From: Chiloscyllium plagiosum
Lineage: Eukaryota
DNA: 64,000 nt
Reading direction: 5' to 3'
Assembly: GCF_004010195.1 (NCBI RefSeq)
Contig: NC_057725.1
Coordinates: forward strand, 20,362,553-20,426,552
Below, in pieces: positions 1 through 40,819 of this stretch (the stretch's first letter is position 1; each line of letters opens with the position of its first letter). The notes under the pieces are model-generated. The model did not search any database. It was not told where the DNA came from and saw only the letters and a program-made list of their open reading frames with translations. The position numbers and the translations under genes are program-made.

Positions 1-207
1 GCTACTCCCCTTCCCCCCAATACCCACAGATACAATGTAGAGGCTCCCCCACCCCTCACTGTGGATGATCTTTATGTCTCCCCCACCATCACCACAACCA
101 TTTGTGTATTGAGTGTTGTTTATTAATGAGGAGGATTCAGGCAGTTGTTAGATGCAGCTTGTTGTTATAATCTCAGTGGGTTTCGCAGCATTTTCCAAGG
201 GTCTTAC

Positions 208-310
208 CTGTTTGACCATGTCGCCAAGCAACGCCGAAGGGACGGGGAATGCTGGGACATGTAGTCTTAGTGGGCGTGATCTGTGAACTACAGATCCCAC
301 AAATCCTGTC
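208..310 (-). promoter_or_regulatory. IFTAP: Probable NWC/IFTAP (C11orf74) CpG-rich promoter and first exon
   Basis: Two inverted ZNF143/SBS motifs: 247-265 (minus strand ACTACAtgTCCCAGCATTC) and 287-306 (plus strand ACTACAgaTCCCACAAATCC). X-box GTCGCCAAGCAAC at 220-232. Strong minus-strand donor CAG|GTAAGA with the exon ending at 208. Position and orientation (5' of the RAG2 coding exon, antisense to RAG2) match the NWC promoter known in jawed vertebrates. No IFTAP coding exon is in the window, so the gene identity is inferred. Confidence 0.75.
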
Positions 311-852
311 GGCCGGTCCCACTGGACATTACACCCCCGAGGCAATAGAGCCACTGAATATTGATTCCGGAATCAAGAGGAGGGTGTTAGATTGAGATTT
401 CGCTGAATAGTGAACAGTCAGATGATGCAGCGCTCCCAAATAGTTGATCACACAAATATTACAATATTTGAGCGCACAGTCAGCAAAATAGCTTTGAATA
501 TGAGGTAGTCGTTGGAAACAGGAACAGTCCAATAGAAAGAATGTTTTAAAAAGAAAGACATAGAAGTTAACGTACTAAATCATAGTGGAGCATTGATCGA
601 ACATATACAAAACAATTTAGAGCAGTATGGATCATTTTTAAGTTTTACTAGTTGGGGGGGGCGGTAATTCAACGTTCAGGCCTGTTCCATCCTTCAACAA
701 TGTCATGGCTCACATGGTTGTGGTCTCAGGTCTATTATATATCTGTATTCAATACCTTTTGAGTCCCTTCTCTATGAAAAGTCTATCCAAATCAATCTTG
801 AACAAAGACCCAGCTTCTGCTATATATGATTTAAGAGCAGGAGCAAACCTTT

Positions 853-3090
853 AAAGTTATAGAGATGTACAGCACGGAAACAGACCCTTCGGTCCAACCC
901 GTCCATGCTGACCAGATATCCTAACCCAATCTCGTCCTACCTGCCAGCACCTGGCCCATATCCCTCCAAACACTTATTATTCATATACCCATCCAGATGC
1001 CTTTTAGATGTCGCAATTGTATTAGTCTCCACCACTTCCTCTGGCTGCTCATTCCATACATGTACCACCCTCTGTGTGAAAATGTTGCCCCTTAGATCTT
1101 GTTTATATCTTTCCCCTCTCACCCTAAACCTATGCCCTCTAGTTCTGGACTCCCCCACATCTGGGTAAAGACTTTGTCTAGTTATCCTATCCATGCCCCT
1201 CATGATTTTATAAACCTCTATAAGGTCACCCCTCAGCCTCCGACACTCCAGGAAAAACAGCCCCAGCCTATTTCACCACTCCCTATAGCTCAATTCCTCC
1301 AACTCTGGCAACATCCTTGTAAATCTTTTCTGAACCCTTTCAAGTTTCAAACCATCGTCCGATAAGAAGGAGACCAGAATTGCACGCCATATTCCAACAG
1401 TGGCTCAACCAATGTCCTGTACAGCTGCAACATGACCTCCCAACTCCTGTACTCAATACTCTGACCAATAAAGGAAAGCATACCAAACGCCTTCTTCACT
1501 ATCCTATCTAACTGTGACTCCACTTTCAAGGAGCTATGAACCTGCACTCCAAGGTCTCTTTGTTCAGCAACACTCCCTAGGACCTTACCATTAAGTGTAT
1601 AAGTCCTGCTAAGATTTGCTTTCCAAAAGTGCAGCACCTCGCATTTATCTGAATTAAACTCCATCTGCCACTTCTCAGCCCATTGGCCCATCTGATCAAG
1701 ATCCTGTTGTAATCTTAGGCAACCTTCTTTGCTGTCCACTACACCTCAATTTCAGTGCCACCTGCAAACTTATTAACTATACCTTTTATGCTCACATCCA
1801 AATCATTTATATAAATGATGAAAAGCAGAGGACCCAGCACTGATCCTTGTGGCACTCCACTGGTCACAGGCCTCCAGTCTGAAAAACAACCCTCCACCAC
1901 CACCCTCTATCTTCTACCTTTTGAGCCAGTTCTATATCCAAATAGCTAGTTCTCCCTGTATTCCATGAGATCTAACCTTGCTAACCAGTCTCCCATGCAA
2001 ACCTTGTCAAATGCCTTACTGAAGTCCATATAGATCACATCTACTGCTCTGCCCTCATCAATCCTCTTTGTTACTTCTTCAAAAACTCAGTCAAGTTTGT
2101 GAGACATGACTTCCCATGCACAAAGCCATGTTGATTATCCCTAATTAGTCTTTGCCTTTCCACGTACATGTACATCCTGTCCCTCAGGATTCTCTCCAAC
2201 AAATTGCCCACTGCTGATGTCAGGCTCACTGGTCTATAGTTCCCTGGCTTGTCTTTACCACCCTTCTTAAACAGTGGAACCACTTTAGCCAACCTTCAGT
2301 CTTCCGGCATCTCACCTGTGACTATTGATGATACAAATATCTCAGCAAGAGGCCCAGCAATCACTTCACTAGCTTTCCACTGAGTCTTTGGGTATACCTG
2401 TTCAGGTCCTGAGTATTTATCCACTTTTATGTGTTTCAAGACATCCAGCACTTTCTCCTCTGTAATATGAACATTTTTCAAGATGTCACCATCTATTTCC
2501 CTACATTCTATATGTTCTATGTCCTTTTCCACAGTAAATACTGATGCAAAATATTCATTTAGTATCTCCCCTAATGCCGAGGCTCCACAAAAAGCCTGCC
2601 TTGCTGACCTTTGAGGGCCCTATTCTCTCCCTAGTTACTCTTTTGTCCTTAATATATTTGTAAAAAAAAAACCTTTGGATTCTCCTTAACTCTATTTACC
2701 AAAGCTATCTCATGTCCCCTTTTTGCCCTCCTGATTTCTCTCTTAAGTATACCCCCACTGCCTTTATACGTTTCTAAGGATTCATTCAATCTATCTTGTC
2801 TATACCTGACATATGCTTCCTTCTTTTTCTTAACCAAACCCTCAACTTCTTTCGCCATCCAGCACCTACCAGCCTTTCCTTTCACCCTAACAGGAATACA
2901 CTTTCTCTGGACTCTCGTTATATCATTTCTGAAGGCTTCCAGCCATCCCTTTACCTGCGAACATCTGCCCCCAGTCAGCTTTTGAAAGTTCTTGCCTCAT
3001 ACTGTCAAAATTAGCCTTCCTCCAATTTCGAACTTCAACTTTTAGATCTGGTCTAACATTTTCCATCACTATTTTAAAATTAATAGAATT
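853..3090 (-). mobile_element. CR1 LINE, 5'-truncated and frameshifted ORF2 plus 3' tail
   Basis: ORF fragments such as VVPLFKKGGKDKPGNYRPVSLTS, QHGFVHGKSCLTNL, WQMEFNSDKCEVLHF and FTQRVVHVWNE. Confidence 0.9.
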
Positions 3091-4552
3091 ATGGTTACGG
3101 CCCCCCTCTATTCCCTCTATATTCTACATATTTAATACTAACATACAACTCTTACACATAGACCTAAATACTCGTTGCAAAATACATGCCATTACTGATG
3201 CAAAAATCTCAGAAGGGCCAGAAAGTGTAGATTTATGATGATTCGCAAACTTGGTGATAATATGAGGAATCGTTGTTTATGTAAGGAGGTAATATAGAAC
3301 ATTGAACATAGAACATAGAAAAGTACAGGCTCTTTCGCCCACGATGTCGTGCCAAGGTTTAATCCTAATGTAAAATATAATAACTTAACCCCTGCACCCC
3401 TCAACTCACTACTATCCACGTGCATGTCCAGCAGTCACTTAAATGTCCCCAGTGACTCTGCTTCCACCACCACAGGATGTCAAAGGATTCCATGGATTAA
3501 CAACTCTCTGCGTAAAGAACCTACCTCTGACGTCTCCTTTATACCTTCCTCCTAATATCCTGGAATTTGGAATCCATTGCATGCCAAGGTCATGAAAACA
3601 ATTTGAAAAACAGCATTGAATAAATACTAAATGGGAAAGACCTGATGAGATTTTTGAGAATGATACAAACAAAGTAGTTAAGGAAAACCAGATCTTCTTT
3701 TGATAAATGGCTGTCACCAAAGGATGGAGGACTCCAAGCATCGCAACCCACTTTCCAAAATGAGAGGAAGGATTAACCTGGCAGTCAGTTTAATATGCAA
3801 CAGAGAAGCATTTAAAAACAAAATCCACAAGTAAAAATAACAGCATCTTAGACAAGTGAAGATCAATTAAAGGGGAGTTGGCAGAGAATCATGAAGGAGA
3901 AATCCTTATTGACTAACAGAATTGAGGTCTTGATGAAGACAGACTGAATGAAAAAAAATTTGTTGATATGTATATGGATTTCCAACAGGTGCCTGATGAA
4001 GGACAACAATGCACAAAATTGAAGTCCAGTGGGTATAAACAGGGCAATATCTGCATGGGTACAAAAGCAGAGTGATGCAGTGAAAGGCTGTTTTCATGTT
4101 GCAGTGGAATTCCCCAGGATTCAATACCATGTGGGAAAATGTGGCAAAGGATCTCCAGCATCCCGACCTTATCTACCATGGTGATTCTTTCCTGTAGCCA
4201 TTTTCCTCTGTCCTGTCTCCAGGTCAATTTCTAGGTCCTAGTCTCTAACTGATATCCCATCAATGCATTCAGGTTTCCGAATAACATGGCCCAAACACAA
4301 TTTATGTAACCTTTTCAATTCTAGTGCCTGTTATGATCCTAGCTGATGGTTGTATTAGACAAGTCAAACAGGAAGTGAAACTTAGCTTGATAGACCATAA
4401 GTTTTACCTTTGCAATTTGATTCCTGTGCCAGTCATTCACTGAACATAATCACACAAGATTGCCAATGTAATTTTAACATAATAATATTTGATTGTTGGT
4501 CAAAGATTTAAAAAAGACAATCTGAGAGACCCTATCACAAACAACAATAACA

Positions 4553-4669
4553 AATATTCATTTATTTTCTCCCAATAATATTCCTTACAGATATTCAACA
4601 CCAGTGAAGTATCATTAATATTCATTTATTTTCTCCCAATAATATTCCTTACAGATACTCAATATCAGT
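4553..4669 (+). repeat. Local direct duplication of about 53 bp, period 64
   Basis: AATATTCATTTATTTTCTCCCAATAATATTCCTTACAGATA occurs at 4553 and at 4617. Confidence 0.9.
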
Positions 4670-5080
4670 CCTAACTTCACTCAATGATCTCTCTTTCAAC
4701 TGCCAAAGGCACGTGCATTTCCTTTTCTGCACATTCACCAAATATGATTCTCTTTATTTCCCTTCAAGATACACGATATGGTTAACACACTAACTTTAGT
4801 CTGACTTTGACTACTCTGAGACTGCATTTCTTGTGAACAATCTGCTTCTGGCCCTTCTTTCTGTAGATTCTAAAACCTGAATTCACCAAACGCTTCAGTA
4901 AATATCTCACCCGGAAGCTTATCTAATCATTCAGCATAAGTCTTATGATTTATTAGAAAAGCTATTTGATCCACTGCAAAAAACTATGGGTTTCTAACCC
5001 TTACAAAAAAAAAGCCACCTTCACTGGGCTAAAAATAAAAACCCCATTTTTGTCTACTTTAGAACCCAAGTTCCCATTTG

Positions 5081-5230
5081 GAGTGGCACGGTGGCTCAGT
5101 GGTTAGCACTGCTGCCTCACAGCACCAGGGACCCAGGTTTGATTCCAGCCTCGGGTGACTGTGTGGAGTTTGCACATTCTCCCTGTGTCTGCATGGGTTT
5201 CCTCTGGATGCTCTGGTTTCCTCCCACAAT
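5081..5230 (+). mobile_element. HE1-type tRNA-derived V-SINE, truncated
   Basis: Head GGTGGCTCAGTGGTTAGCACTGCTGCCTCACAGC followed by V-domain GTGTGGAGTTTGCACATTCTCCC. Confidence 0.85.
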
Positions 5231-5964
5231 TACTCCTCCAATTTTGGTGTCATCTGCAACCTGTTCTTGTAGCCACTGTATTTACGACCACAAGAAATAG
5301 GAACAGGAGTAGGCCACTCAGCCTTTCAAGGCTGCTCCACCATTCAGTAGGGCCATGGCTCATCCAGCACTGCATAAGTCCCCATAACCCTTGATTGCTC
5401 TACTGATCAAGAACCTATCTATGTCAGCCTTAAATATACACAAGGACTCTGCCCCCACAGCTCACTATGGCAAGGAGTTCCAAAAACACATGATCCTCAG
5501 AGAGAAGAAATTCCTCCCCATCTTAGTCCTAAATTAGTGACCCTTAATTCTGAGACTATGCTCCCTGGTCCTAGACTCTCCCATGAGAAGAAACATCCCC
5601 TCAGTACTTACCCTGTCAAAGGAGGTTCAAGAAACAAAACCATTACAGGAACCATGCTGTAGTACCCAGCGATGGTTAAAACAAAATCCATCATGAGCGT
5701 TGATGGGACACAAACAAATGAAAGAATAACTGAAGCCTTCCTGAAAGGTGAGCATGATTCAAAGTAATATTGTCTGCCTTCACTAAATGAGGCTCAGAAA
5801 GTAGATCCTGAATTAAATAAATTGGCGCAGTCAGCTTACACTGAAATACAGGCCAAAGGAGTGCTATTATCTGAAGAATGGAGTGTGCTGATAAGGAAGT
5901 AAAAAATAAAGTTGTCATAGTCCCAGAGGACTGCAGGATTATTTTCTCATTAGAAAGAGACTGG

Positions 5965-6285
5965 TGGTGCACAGTGGCTCAGTGGTTAGCACTGTAGCCT
6001 CACAGCACCAAGGACCTGGGTTCAAGTCCAGCCTTGGGCTGTGTGGAGTTTGCACATTCTCCCTGTGTCTGCATGGGTTTCCTCTGGATGCTCTGGTTTC
6101 CTCCCACAATCCAAAAGGTGTGCAGGTTAGGTAAATTGGCCATGCTAAATTGCCCATAGTGTTAGGTGCATTATTCAGGGATAAATGTAGGGCAGGGGAA
6201 TGGGTCTGGGTGGGTTACTCTTTGGAGGGTCAGTGTGGACATATTGGGCTGAAAGGCCTGTTTCCATACTGTAACTCTAATCTAA
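5965..6285 (+). mobile_element. HE1-type V-SINE
   Basis: tRNA-like head, V domain, CR1-derived tail ending in CTAAT repeats. Confidence 0.85.
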
Positions 6286-6778
6286 TATATTGTAAGTCTT
6301 AATCATATACTGTTCCACCTCAGTCCCCCCAGACATATGTTCCAAAGATAGAAGAATAATAAAAGGATTTGAGTATTTGAAGGTTTCATATCCTGACCTG
6401 GAATTGGAAAGAAACTAAGTTTGCTGAATGAAGATTTATTGAAACTGAATTTCAGTAATAAGGTTGGAAGCAATTACACTTTGTGCATGACGAATAAAAA
6501 TCAATGCAGTACAATGTTTTTCTTACTTAATAAAGTAAAAGTATTTCATAACCTAAGGTAATTGAATTTTGAAATATAAAGTGATGGTATTTTTAATTGC
6601 TGATTTATCACACAAATTACAGCAAAAACCAGCATTTTTGCACTTATTAAAAGCTGCAGAGTGGTTAGTTCTGCATCATCAGAATCCATAACAATCAATT
6701 TTGTAATAAATTTTTAATTCTAACATCAGTTTATATTTCTTTTCTTTCCATAGATACTGTCAGCTTTTCACTGTGGCA

Positions 6779-8338
6779 ATGTCTCTGCAAATGGTTTCAG
6801 AGAGTAGCAAAACTGGACTCATCTACCCAGGCTTTTCTTTATTCAATTTAAACGGTGAAGTCTTCTTTTTTGGTCAGAAAGGGTGGCCAAAAAGATCCTG
6901 CAGCACTGGAGTTTTTCTTCTTCATCTCAAAGGTCATAATCTCAAACTGAAAGCTGTTTCATTTTCACCTGACTCTTGCTACCTTCCCCCACTGCGCTGT
7001 CCTGCAATAACCCATTACTCGGATCCCTCAGAATCCAAGAGCCCTTTATATTTCATTCATGGTGGGAGAGATCCAAATAATGACTTGACTAATTCACTTT
7101 ATTTAATGATGGTTTACTGTAGCACTGGCAACAAGACAACATCGCTTCGTTGCATTGAAAAGAATCTTGAAGGAGAGGTTCCCCAAGGAAGATATGGCCA
7201 CAGCATCAATGTGGTTCAAAGCAAGGGTCAAATGTTGTTAGTCTTGTTTGGGGGTAGATGCTTCCGGCCCCCTGGGCAAAGAACCACAGAAAACTGGAAC
7301 AGTGTTGTTGATTGTTTGCCGGAAGTTTTTCTGATTGATATAAACACCGGCCATTGCACATCCCACATACTTCCCGAAATAGAAGATGGGTTTTCATTTC
7401 ATATCTCCATTGCAAAAATTGACAGAGTGTACATATTAGGTGGCCATTCCATTGAAACGAATCTTCGCCCTGAAAGGTTGCTTTGTCTGAAGGTTGATTT
7501 ATCTGGGACTTCTCCAAGTGTCCAGTGTACAATACTGCAAGGTGGCATTTCTGTGTCGAGTGCAATAGTGACCCAAGCAGGAAAAGATGAATTCATAATT
7601 GTTGGTGGTTATGAGTCGGAGAGCAAGAAGCGAATGATTTGTAACACCATCACAGTGGAGAATGACAACATTCAGATTTTGGAAAAGGAGCCCCCAGCGT
7701 GGACCAGCGATATTAAAGCAAGCAAAACCTGGTTTGGTAGCAGCATGGAAAGTAATACAGTGTTACTCGGCATCCCTGGAGAAAGTAAACAAGATGCAGC
7801 CGAGGCATACTTCTTCTATATTGCGAAATTTGGGCAATTAGATGAAGAAAGTCAAGTTTCTTGCAGCCAGGAATCCTTCACTGATCCAGAAGAATGCAGC
7901 ACTTTTGAAGATTCAGAAGAATTTAACTTTGAAGTGGAGGCCGATGGCTCTGATGATGCAGAGAACCGAGATAATGCTGATGAGGAAGGTTATTGGATTA
8001 AATGCAGCTCCACGTGTAATATGAACGTCAATATCTGGGAGCCTTATTACTCCACAGAATTAAATAAACCTGCAATGATTTGCTGCTCTAGCGGAGGTGA
8101 TGATGGACACTGGGTTCATGCCCAGTGCATGAATCTTGCAGAATCACAGCTGATTCAGTTTTCTCAAGAAAACACAAAGTATTTTTGCAATGAGCATTAC
8201 ATTGATAGAGGAATTCAAACACCTCAAAAGAAGAAACAGATAAAGCGAACACCAATTAAATCTCCACGTAAGAAATCGCCAGCCACTCTGAAAAGGACAC
8301 CAATGAAGAAAAGCTTTCTGAAGAGACTATTTGATTGA
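6779..8338 (+). CDS. RAG2: V(D)J recombination-activating protein 2, 519 aa, single coding exon
   Basis: Starts MSLQMV. Kelch core (FGQKGWPKRSC, GRYGHS, RTTENWNSVVDC), acidic hinge, PHD finger (GYWIKC...GHWVHAQCM...YFCNEH), C-terminus KKSFLKRLFD. Acceptor tttctttccatag| lies just before 6754. The ATG at 6779 is preferred over the track's GTG at 6773. Confidence 0.99.
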   Translation: MSLQMVSESSKTGLIYPGFSLFNLNGEVFFFGQKGWPKRSCSTGVFLLHLKGHNLKLKAVSFSPDSCYLPPLRCPAITHYSDPSESKSPLYFIHGGRDPNNDLTNSLYLMMVYCSTGNKTTSLRCIEKNLEGEVPQGRYGHSINVVQSKGQMLLVLFGGRCFRPPGQRTTENWNSVVDCLPEVFLIDINTGHCTSHILPEIEDGFSFHISIAKIDRVYILGGHSIETNLRPERLLCLKVDLSGTSPSVQCTILQGGISVSSAIVTQAGKDEFIIVGGYESESKKRMICNTITVENDNIQILEKEPPAWTSDIKASKTWFGSSMESNTVLLGIPGESKQDAAEAYFFYIAKFGQLDEESQVSCSQESFTDPEECSTFEDSEEFNFEVEADGSDDAENRDNADEEGYWIKCSSTCNMNVNIWEPYYSTELNKPAMICCSSGGDDGHWVHAQCMNLAESQLIQFSQENTKYFCNEHYIDRGIQTPQKKKQIKRTPIKSPRKKSPATLKRTPMKKSFLKRLFD

Positions 8339-36627: not shown

Positions 36628-39600
36628 CTAAAAATCAAATGAATTATCATTAGGTATTGTATCTTCTGCACTGATCAGTTCAGGTTCTACAGTTGCACAC
36701 TTGATGTCCTTTAACGTATTGTGTACTTCCATGAACCGTTGCAAATATTTTGAAGTGTACAGCCAGTGATGCTTCAAAATGTCTTCCAATTCATAGCTTT
36801 TGGACTGCCTTGCATTCATTTTCCTGAAACGCCGGAAGAGTTTGTTGCCTGATTCATTGCCTTCACTCGCCCACGCACCTATAGAGCCATCTCTTTCAAT
36901 GATCTCGGGGACGTGAGCCAGTGTTTTGTGCAGGTAGTTGGTGATCTTCCCTTTGTATCTGTGCTTGAACTCTGTATGAAGCAGTTCTGCAAATCTCTGG
37001 GAATTGTAGCTGTACTGACAAAGAAGGTCAGGACACTCCCTGGCTGGAAACGTGGAACGCCACACTGGTTTCATCTGAAGATAAAGGTGCATGAGCTCCC
37101 TGAGGATTTGCCGCCTTTCTTCAGACGGAATCAGTTCACACACAGCCTCGACCGTCTCTTTAGTCATTAGCTTCCGTGCAAAATTTCCATTCAGCCTCAT
37201 GACAGGCTTCAGGTTCATCTTCTTCCTTAAGTGCTTGTCAAGCATCGCTTGCCACCGCTTCCTCTCCTCCTTGGAGGTGTTCGGATTTTTGTACAGCTCC
37301 CCAATCTCGTCCTGGAAGAGCTTGTAGAACTCGGTGGCGTTTCCAATGTCGCAGTGCAAGGCATCGATGGACGGCTGAGTTTCGATGAATGGCTTTGCTG
37401 AAACCCCCTTCACCCGGTCACGCAACTCCTCCGCGGTTTCGCAGTACGGGTTGGAGCGCCAAATCTCGTAGCGCACCAAGTTCTCTTCGTGGCTCCTTGT
37501 TATGGAATGAAAAACCAGGTTCTGGGAAGCCTCATATCGTGTGGAATCACACAGCGTACAGACGAACATCGAGCCCGAGGCTTCGAGGCCTTCCATTTCC
37601 CGAACAAGCTTCTCATCATACCCTGTGCCCCTAAAGATAAACCGGAAGGATCTGTGCAAGTCCCCAATCTCAAGGATCAAATCACTAGTCTTCATAGCTT
37701 CTCGCTCGGCGATTACTGGGCCCAGGATCGCTGTCAACGTTTCGTGGTCAGATTCGTCCGCCAACATCAGGGAAAGTGGTCGGCAGCACAGCTCAGAATT
37801 AGGCTTCAACTCCTCTAAAATTACCACTTTCTCATCGTTGTTATTCATCACACTTATGCTCATGATTGTAAAGGAAAACCTCACTGCCTTTTCTGGAACA
37901 GGAGGACCGCATCCGTGTTTCTCGCTGACGTCGCCCATTCCATCACAAGACTCCTTGATTACAACAGTAAACGGTCCACTCACAAACTCGTCTACGCTAT
38001 GGCGTTTTAAACCTTCTAGAATATCGTCCTCAAGCTCCTTCACTGTTGTAGCAAGTGCCACATCATACCTAAACCGTCTTGAAATGGTTTCCATTGGATA
38101 ATCATCAATACATTGTGTCCATCCACTCAGACCATCTATAATTCCCACTTCAGTGTTTGTCGAGACGTTTGCCAGAGGGGGCTGCCACTCAAATGAATAA
38201 TAACCTGGCAACAGTATTTTTTCTGCATTTCGAAGAGCATGCAATGGCTGGAAGATCTGCTTCCCAGTTGTTGCTTTGACTGTCCTGTACATTTTATGAT
38301 ACTGACTGCAACTCAGAAATGTGTTCACTCTAATGGCAAGGCAGACTGCTGGCTTCAGTTCGGATCCTTTGCCCTGCATTACCGCTTCCAGCTCATCTGC
38401 TTGCCTGTGCTCATTGCCAGCTCTGAGTGCCAGAAGTAACAGAGTCAGGCAAACGGATTTTACGTCACCATCTTCCTCTTTGTCTGCGAAAGCCTTCACC
38501 TGAAGTTTCAGATCTCTCAGACGATGCTTTTGAGCTCTTCGGGTGAGAGAAAGCAAATGTAGTCTTGGACGACCTCCCTTGTTCACTGGTGAGTAAGCGT
38601 TCTTCATTCTCGTTTCTTTATGGTTTTGAGCATGATTCGAATATTCACCGAGTCTCACCTCCATTTCACAATCAGTTGCTGGACATTTGAGTACAAGTGA
38701 ATTGAGAACATTTATGAATGATTTAACAGGGCTTAAGAGCTCTTTGGGACCACAAGGAAATCTACAAACTGGGCAATACTTGCCTAGGACAGCAATGCAT
38801 TTGAGGATACACGTTCTGCAGAACAGGTGCTTGCAAGGTGATTGCACAGGGTCAGCAAGTAAGTGCTCACAAACCTGACATGACACGGACTGGATAAAAT
38901 TATTGGGATAATCAAGCACAAGGAGTTTTGAAGTTAGATGAAACTTCTTGCAGTTGACAATCTTTCTGGCCAATAACAAACTTGTGCTAGTCAACTGATC
39001 TTTTCTTTTAATGACTCTTGGTCTGACTGGAGCATCAGTTGTGACTTTAGGCTTCTTTGTGACTGGTGGACTTCGTTTCAGACCTTTTCGTTTGCGGGCC
39101 CCACTCAAAAAGTTGCAAATGCTGCAAAGATTGGAATGTGGTTTCCACTCAACGATTGCACTGATCGGAAAGAATGCATCTTCATTCGTTGTATTGTTAA
39201 TTGTCTGAATCACAATACGCCAACAGTTATAGCAGAAGTGAGTGGGATATCTGGCTTCTGTATCTGTCTTGACATCAATCCTAAATGTGTTACGGATGAG
39301 TTCTGGCCAAAAACACTCACCATATCCCATTTTCCTGAGCACCTCTTGGGTGACATCATCAACAGGACCATTCACTGGGTATTTCATATCATGACAGTAG
39401 GTGTTAAAGGCAACTCCACAAATGCGACAGAGATTTTGCAATCGCAATATATGCTCTTCCAAAGATTTTGCTTTTATTTGGCTAAAGTCGCAGGACTGGT
39501 TTTTTGATGGGTCGCATTCTAAAAGCATTTGTTCCAGGGCCTTATCTTCAAAAGTTTTTTTGTCCAAAGGCAGTGTTTCTAATGGCATAGTTCCCACTGG

Positions 39601-39774
39601 TTTGCTCTGTGGTAATGGGGAATGCCGAAGTAGGCCATGAACTGGTGTAACCGTCTCTGTCTCATAAAGCTTTTCCATTGAAACTATGACTTCCTTCTGG
39701 GTATTTTTGATTGGCCTGGTTTCTGCATATAAGAAGTCATCAGGTAACAGTCGTAGAGGCATCTTCATTTCCAT
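36628..39774 (-). CDS. RAG1: V(D)J recombination-activating protein 1, 1048 aa, single coding exon
   Basis: N-terminal CRICG and HFCxxCW zinc motifs, C3HC4 RING, NBD GGRPR, catalytic ESCDGMGD / GTGYDEK / SEGNESGNK. Acceptor ttctgtcag| with the exon starting at 39786. Confidence 0.99.
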
Positions 39775-40819
39775 AATGACTGGTATCTGACAGAAGTAAA
39801 GAAAAATGATTCTTGGTTAAAATAGGATGAGAGTTCAGCACCTTCAGATGCAAAACAGTTTTATGTTCAACACCAATTCACAGCACTCACATTTAAATTA
39901 TGCAATATTCAGAAAACTGCATTTCTGTATAAAAATTGAGTTTCTGATCCAGTTCAATGAAGGACCATCATATCCAATATCAGGGGATTAACGTTAACCT
40001 AAAACCCTAATGGGAATTATAGTATGGGGAAAGCTGCTCATTCCAGTGAAGAGTATGTTTGAGCAGGTGTAAGGAAGGCTATCTGCTTCTATTCCCATTG
40101 GGTCAGTTATGTTAAAGTTGCACCTTTAATGATGAAAAAGATTTCCTTAGCTAAGAAAGAAAAAACTTAGAAAACTATTCCCACATGATTTTTATTTTAT
40201 TCATTTAAGATTCTCACTACAGATTGTACAGGCAGCGTGAAAATGCAACTTGGTAAAAGCACTGTTCAGCCAGACATGATGGTTATCTTCAAGCTTCATC
40301 ACGCCTGAAAAAACAGGACAACAGCTGAACAATTGAGACTTTGGTTTTCACTCTCGTAACTTAAGGACATGTTAAAATAATGTTAAACTGCAGCTTGCCT
40401 GACCACCTCCATGTACAAATACCTTCCTCCAGTGCTTTCTCTTCACAATGTTATCACCTGTCTTTGTATAAACGTAATTGTTAGTGCATTGTTTCATTAT
40501 TTTTATCAGCTTTACTAGGCAATAACTCCACTCACTTGTACTCAAGAAAACCTTGGAATTGACTCTCCTTCAATTTTAATCTAGTTAATTAAATTTATTT
40601 GAAGTGCAATTTAGCCACGTACTAAAAAATCAATAAAAATATTTACAGAAAGGGAGTTTTAAAAGAGGGGAGTGAATCACATAGAAATATATAAGTGACA
40701 ACAAGATAGCATATCTAACCAGCCTTCATTTAATGGCAGATAACTAATTACAGGTAGTTTCAATCAATGTCCTCAGCTTAGAGTGCAAAGCAGACTTGCC
40801 TGAAATTAATCACATCATG

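Follow-up and report, generated by a model that had tools for sequence, protein, structure and literature searches.

The IFTAP/NWC promoter back to back with RAG2 in the cartilaginous fish Chiloscyllium plagiosum

Introduction

In mouse and human, the NWC gene (also IFTAP or C11orf74) begins with a non-coding exon 1 that stands back to back with the coding exon of RAG2, and its promoter is described, in the available parts of the reports, as CpG-rich, TATA-less and equipped with two inverted consensus sites for ZNF143 (ZFP143) (PMC3439442, PMC4157847). The mouse gene has seven exons according to the accessible text of one study (PMC3035778). A distance of 313 nt separates its start from the RAG2 exon; the transcript made toward RAG2 is reported to be intronless (PMC3439442, available part). 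The Ikaros switch of the mouse promoter needs the hexamer TGGGAA overlapping both ZNF143 sites, as stated in the accessible part of PMC4157847. The promoter, the site pair and a proposal on RAG domestication have been published for mouse, human, dog, Xenopus and Latimeria, as far as the available text of PMC3439442 goes. According to that proposal, insertion next to the ZNF143-driven NWC promoter allowed the RAG transposon to survive, which requires that this promoter was present in the first jawed vertebrates.

The individual sites belong to a broader class. ZNF143/THAP11 housekeeping promoters of the SBS2 type combine the motif ACTACAnnTCCCA with an SBS tail and use divergent pairing (PMC3627581, PMC3082894, both as seen in part). 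On the same motif, ZNF143 and THAP11/HCF-1 have been described as alternating (PMC3627581, available part), and ZNF143 sites are reported to start divergent transcription without productive elongation (PMC3082894, available part).

Xenopus and Latimeria are bony vertebrates, and Chiloscyllium plagiosum is a cartilaginous fish. The NWC promoters of human, Xenopus and zebrafish were reportedly treated by Sniezewski et al. in 2018. No shark account of the IFTAP promoter was found in the literature; Sniezewski et al. 2018 (PMID 29175053) and Fig. S1 of PMC4157847, which covers the locus across vertebrates, may bear on this. The present analysis concerns a 64,000-nucleotide stretch of the C. plagiosum genome (contig NC_057725.1, positions 20,362,553 to 20,426,552), hereafter the window, in which positions are counted from the first letter. 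The region 200-310 of this window is the shark IFTAP/NWC promoter together with its non-coding exon 1.

A pair of ZNF143-type sites in a weak CpG island

A first-pass annotation of the window, made from its letters alone, had pointed to two opposed motifs about 20 bp apart, local CpG richness and a splice donor on the minus strand, and all three proved to be present. The motifs are exact matches to ACTACAnnTCCCA at 253-265 (minus strand) and 287-299 (plus strand), with 21 bp between the cores and the TCCCA ends facing outward, so that the pair is divergent. No further exact match occurs in the window, where five matches with at most one mismatch were observed against 1.35 expected from shuffling. 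Both motifs continue into an SBS2-type tail, in which the consensus of the mouse paper is missed at three and two positions, all of them in the final GCG. By the motif definition in the available part of PMC3627581, the predicted ZNF143/THAP11-type sites span 242..267 on the minus strand (proximal, core 253-265) and 285..310 on the plus strand (distal, core 287-299). By analogy with the mouse promoter, both are likely to be bound by ZNF143. A sequence variant in contig run X2 (described below) falls at 258, a degenerate N position of the proximal motif. The spacer also holds a GC-box-like GGGCGTG (270..278, plus strand), a candidate site of the SP/KLF type.

The CpG enrichment is real, though modest. 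The 200-310 region contains five CpG at an observed/expected ratio of 0.64, against 0.29 for the whole window; across the promoter region the ratio ranges from 0.64 to 0.76, and the 300-bp window starting at 201 reaches 0.72, a value attained by 1.2% of the 300-bp windows in 264 kb. The resulting CpG island (200..500) is called weak because the GC content is only about 0.5 (0.515 in 201-400). No TATA box was found in 230-350.

The IFTAP gene and its first splice junction

The first-pass annotation had expected IFTAP exons to the left of the window and minus-strand splicing into them from 208, and both were found. A genome-wide profile search with the Pfam IFTAP family (PF17722) returned two matches. 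Both lie to the left of the window and are minus-strand, one at about -22.5 kb (C16:20339909-20340040) and the other at about -53 kb (C16:20309188-20309316). A peptide search with exon 2 retrieved four shark IFTAP proteins among 33 candidates, and with their aid we could place six coding exons, at distances of 22-53 kb to the left of the window. The model is intact on the minus strand and encodes an open protein of 249 aa, identical to Hemiscyllium IFTAP at 228 of 249 positions. The non-coding exon 1 brings the gene to seven exons. In the best gene model, intron 3 begins with a GC donor, AAG/GCAAGT, exon 3 ending at about C16:20334033.

The donor of exon 1, CAG/GTAAGA, occupies 202..210 on the minus strand and is cut between 208 and 207. 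On a crude scoring matrix it scores 7.3; of 3251 plus-strand GT sites, 0.12% do as well or better, and four further GT donors of IFTAP score 4.3-7.1 on the same matrix. Sequencing data on positions 1-850 came from two public contig runs, X1 and X2 (two of the four that contain the stretch, all of one study; library type unrecorded), and from two raw single-cell RNA runs of one sample, X5 and X6, the latter with 0 reads on this stretch. In X1, a 180-letter contig of depth 4.8 covers 208-237 and carries a loose end left of 208; the 30 printed letters of this end match the start of IFTAP exon 2 at 30 of 30 positions, and the loose part as a whole is 150 letters long, which is the length of the entire exon 2. 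The contig apparently covers exon 2 from end to end with no branch into intron 1, which suggests that it derives from RNA and not from genomic DNA. In X5, one RNA read lies on approximately 208-257 (its position being taken from bin depths) and is non-genomic beyond 208; the read is below the listing threshold, and its mate has the orientation expected for minus-strand RNA. Contig run X2 contains no spliced form at 208. The junction between exon 1 and exon 2 of shark IFTAP was thus observed directly, on thin counts (one contig in one of the two contig runs and one consistent read), and joins position 208 to exon 2 at C16:20340072 across an intron 1 of about 22.7 kb. A retrocopy as the source of the X1 junction is disfavoured by the two genome-wide PF17722 matches, both at this locus, and by the full exon 2 length of the loose part.

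Exon 1 is placed at 208..257 on the minus strand from the X1 contig and the X5 read, with an exact 3' end and a 5' end that is a lower bound set by the one read. This read extends to about 257, inside the proximal core, and no pile-up of starts was seen; the mouse start, in contrast, is described in the available text as lying about 10 nt downstream of that site. There is no in-frame ATG in exon 1. The joined exon 1 and exon 2 sequence contains a putative upstream ORF of nine codons (MVKQ/MKYLH, start at 208..219, minus strand), which has a good start context and stops 2 nt before the IFTAP ATG in exon 2. In mouse, the RNA is widespread and the protein was seen only in testis (PMC6283527, available part). 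Together with the putative upstream ORF, this mismatch between RNA and protein may offer a lead toward translational control of IFTAP.

A separate observation concerns a contig of X2 that joins position 177 to a LINE copy about 7.2 kb to the left (C16 ~20355566); the two sides share 6 nt of microhomology, and canonical splice ends are lacking. A plus-strand splice into the AG at 175-176 was considered for this loose end and rejected: the partner is the LINE copy, and no register gives GT-AG on either strand. The join reflects either an allele with a deletion in IFTAP intron 1 that begins 31 nt past the donor, or a template switch; its length is uncertain, part of the intron 1 span reading N in the genome.

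Possible transcription toward RAG2

The RAG2 coding exon (6754..8338, plus strand) has its ATG at 6779, encodes 519 aa and is preceded by a strong acceptor, with the AG at 6752-6753. Its protein clusters at 90% with proteins of the carpet sharks Rhincodon, Hemiscyllium, Chiloscyllium punctatum and Stegostoma, which agrees with the first-pass assignment of the DNA to a cartilaginous fish, and at least four accessions exist for the one Stegostoma RAG2 protein, which hints at several 5' exons. Convergent with RAG2 lies an ORF of 1048 aa (36628..39774, minus strand), presumably RAG1 by its sequence features. The two stop codons are 28.3 kb apart (8338-36628); elsewhere in vertebrates the distance is roughly 10 kb. 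A ZNF143-type motif with one mismatch occurs at 40011-40023 (minus strand), some 210 nt ahead of the acceptor of the RAG1 exon; it was not retained as a meaningful site, one-mismatch matches there being at chance level.

Between the promoter and the RAG2 exon lie about 6.5 kb, at least 55% of which is repeat. A decayed LINE fragment on the minus strand (850..3100, end approximate) has up to 27 overlapping local matches and broken ORFs, and its two RVT_1 matches (E 1.5e-6 and 0.0055) are both under the Pfam cut-off. The best of the 33 plus-strand GT sites in 270-850 scores 1.5, and two weak GC sites accompany them. Weak donors can nevertheless be functional, as the GC donor of IFTAP intron 3 illustrates. 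Nine AATAAA hexamers occur in 300-6750, with poly(A) signals from 1467 on. From the promoter to RAG2, the plus strand has just one strong donor, AAG/GTGAGC at 5745..5753 (donor 5748, score 6.8). It sits in a single-copy stretch, 5620-5968; this stretch is a candidate upstream exon of RAG2 ending at that donor. Strong single-copy plus-strand donors flank the promoter on both sides, with five to the left and one, 5748, to the right. Donor 5748 and the donors in IFTAP intron 1 are candidates for the end of the lymphoid first exon of RAG2, on whose place it would depend whether the promoter is nested in a RAG2 intron.

Immediately to the RAG2 side of the promoter, the single-copy stretch 262..847 is covered by unspliced contigs that carry no strand information: one of X1 at 262-847 (depth 9) and one of X2 at 177-659 (depth 12.4), which crosses the promoter unbroken. 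Their depths (9 and 12.4) are no lower than that of the spliced X1 contig (4.8). Over 1-850, which does not include the RAG2 exon, neither X1 nor X2 shows a loose end or a spliced contig on the plus side.

These observations bear on the suggestion of the first-pass annotation that the promoter drives RAG2 transcripts spliced to 6754, which found no support, given a best donor score of 1.5, a 6.5-kb gap made up of repeat for at least 55%, and the lack of a plus-side loose end in X1 and X2. Judged from the sequence, the promoter is unlikely to make RAG2 messages. We consider it probable that it is productive toward IFTAP, that the RNA made toward RAG2 is unspliced and ends early, and that RAG2 mRNA comes from a separate first exon. 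By extension from the mouse work, ZNF143 would occupy both sites, taking turns with THAP11/HCF-1 there, and keep the small CpG island open. Pol II would start toward IFTAP in a broad zone around 240-265, and the strong donor, some 45 nt beyond the proximal core, would then commit the RNA to the 22.7-kb first intron. Pol II probably also starts toward RAG2, a behaviour intrinsic to ZNF143 sites; the next 5.4 kb offer no good donor, poly(A) signals occur from 1467 on, and this RNA would be expected to stay unspliced and to end early. An asymmetry of donors and poly(A) signals is usual for promoters that are productive in one direction. The RAG2 mRNA itself would then start from a lymphoid first exon elsewhere.

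The strongest competing explanation, which we regard as unlikely, is a productively bidirectional promoter that gives RAG2 mRNA in non-lymphoid tissue such as testis, be it by use of a weak donor such as 664 or 505, by a long exon that ends at 5747, or without splicing. It would fit the unspliced contigs on the RAG2 side (262-847 in X1, up to 659 in X2), the strength of the RAG2 acceptor, the several Stegostoma isoform accessions and the mouse promoter, for which RAG2-ward output has been shown and is strongest in testis (PMC3439442, available part). However, the mouse promoter makes its intronless transcript over a gap of 313 nt and not 6.5 kb, according to the same text, and in the shark a best donor of 1.5, nine AATAAA hexamers and a LINE lie between promoter and RAG2; moreover, X1 and X2 are without a plus-side loose end, although a loose end is visible at 208.

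It would also be conceivable, with a considerably smaller probability, that the donor at 208 is real and the main start lies further to the right, be it through a longer exon 1, LINE read-through or a pre-mRNA of the RAG1/NWC type, in which case the motifs would be internal to a transcript and 262-847 would represent minus-strand RNA. The unbroken passage of the X2 contig across the motifs, the reach of the X5 read into the proximal core and the RAG1-driven hybrid transcripts of mouse lymphocytes (PMC3035778, available part) are compatible with such a start, but the CpG peak and the motif pair sit directly upstream of the donor in use, which is also their place in the published promoters, and 300-850 offers no better promoter candidate.

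Divergent site pairs in the shark genome

How ordinary such a pair is can be judged from the genome as a whole. Including the IFTAP pair, at least 14 divergent pairs were counted with spacers of 10-40 bp and at least 22 with spacers of 41-70 bp (at least 36 in total), while the reversed pattern gave none and the convergent orientation at least one at 10-40 bp, a ratio of 14 to 1 between divergent and convergent short-spaced pairs in which the counts are lower bounds. A central CpG ratio of at least 0.6 is found in 12 of the 14 short-spaced pairs, and the central 300 bp of the IFTAP pair, with 11 CpG, ranks below 11 of 13 comparable shark pairs. By inspection, the spacers of all 36 pairs differ; their lengths cluster at 19-24, 34-43 and 46-61 bp, with none at 25-33, a post hoc pattern from which helical phasing is not claimed. 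The segment 150-450 has one match in the genome (in a search that skips very common words), and self-BLAST found no copy of 1-849 in 264 kb. The pair counts against their controls, taken with the single-copy status, indicate that this genome uses the layout as an ordinary housekeeping-promoter design that is under selection, and that it is not a repeat. The notion that the IFTAP pair arose by chance or was carried in by a transposon is largely refuted and would be very improbable indeed, given the single genomic match without local copies, the differing spacers of the 36 pairs, the position of the pair at the 5' end of a spliced gene and an expectation of about 2e-7 exact inverted pairs no more than 60 bp apart per window (from base composition).

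Comparison with known NWC promoters

With mouse and human, the shark locus shares the inverted pair of ZNF143 consensus sites, the CpG-rich, TATA-less promoter, the seven-exon gene and a non-coding exon 1 that points away from the coding exon of RAG2, as far as the available descriptions go. The Xenopus and Latimeria promoters are likewise described with an inverted ZNF143 pair at the 5' end of NWC, linked to RAG2. The spacer, in contrast, is 21 bp in the shark, against about 40 in mouse and human and 40-50 in Xenopus and Latimeria in the same accessible text, and the distance to the RAG2 exon is about 6.5 kb against 313 nt in mouse. Set against SBS2 housekeeping promoters in general, the shark pair shows no mechanistic difference, and only its RAG2 neighbourhood is special.

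A further difference lies in the Ikaros hexamer. Compared with the available mouse description, the shark promoter has a weaker CpG island and TGGGAA at neither site, with TGGGAC and TGGGAT in its place; the only Ikaros core GGGAA in 200-350 is found at 245..249 (plus strand). This absence is not unusual in itself, because TGGGAA is also missing in 7 of the 14 short-spaced divergent pairs of the shark genome. With TGGGAC and TGGGAT at the sites, direct competition by Ikaros at both cores is predicted to be weak.

The earlier statement that the architecture is the same as in mammals stands for the motif pair, exon 1 and the position of IFTAP opposite RAG2, and is overstated with regard to the 21-bp spacer, the missing TGGGAA and any nesting inside a RAG2 intron. 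The shark promoter is of the vertebrate IFTAP/NWC kind, and is set apart from the mouse-type form, which drives RAG2 and is switched by Ikaros, by its distance from RAG2 and its lack of TGGGAA. The mouse-type form is further defined by a place within a RAG2 intron that lymphoid RAG2 transcription crosses, and by methylation and silence in lymphocytes.

Evolutionary implications

Sharks are an outgroup to the species seen analysed, and the presence of the site pair, exon 1 and the linkage in C. plagiosum supports the age of the layout; the back-to-back arrangement of the IFTAP promoter and RAG2 likely dates to the first jawed vertebrates. As such, the finding is a modest phylogenetic extension of published work and introduces no new mechanism.

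A more speculative and rather improbable scenario is that the IFTAP promoter, beside RAG2 since the jawed-vertebrate ancestor, fires toward RAG2 in shark germ cells without the Ikaros switch and supplies germ-line RAG2, which would help to explain the pre-joined immunoglobulin genes. Pre-joined immunoglobulin clusters are described for cartilaginous fish in the available part of PMC8355894, and the connection is drawn because the mouse promoter is most active in testis. If true, this scenario would also need germ-line RAG1, for which no support was found.

For the domestication proposal, the shark locus separates parts that occur together in the mouse-type form: it retains the promoter but has neither the short distance to RAG2 nor the Ikaros hexamers. 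It may thus help to test, as a natural experiment, whether firing toward RAG2 and the Ikaros switch were present from the start or were added later.
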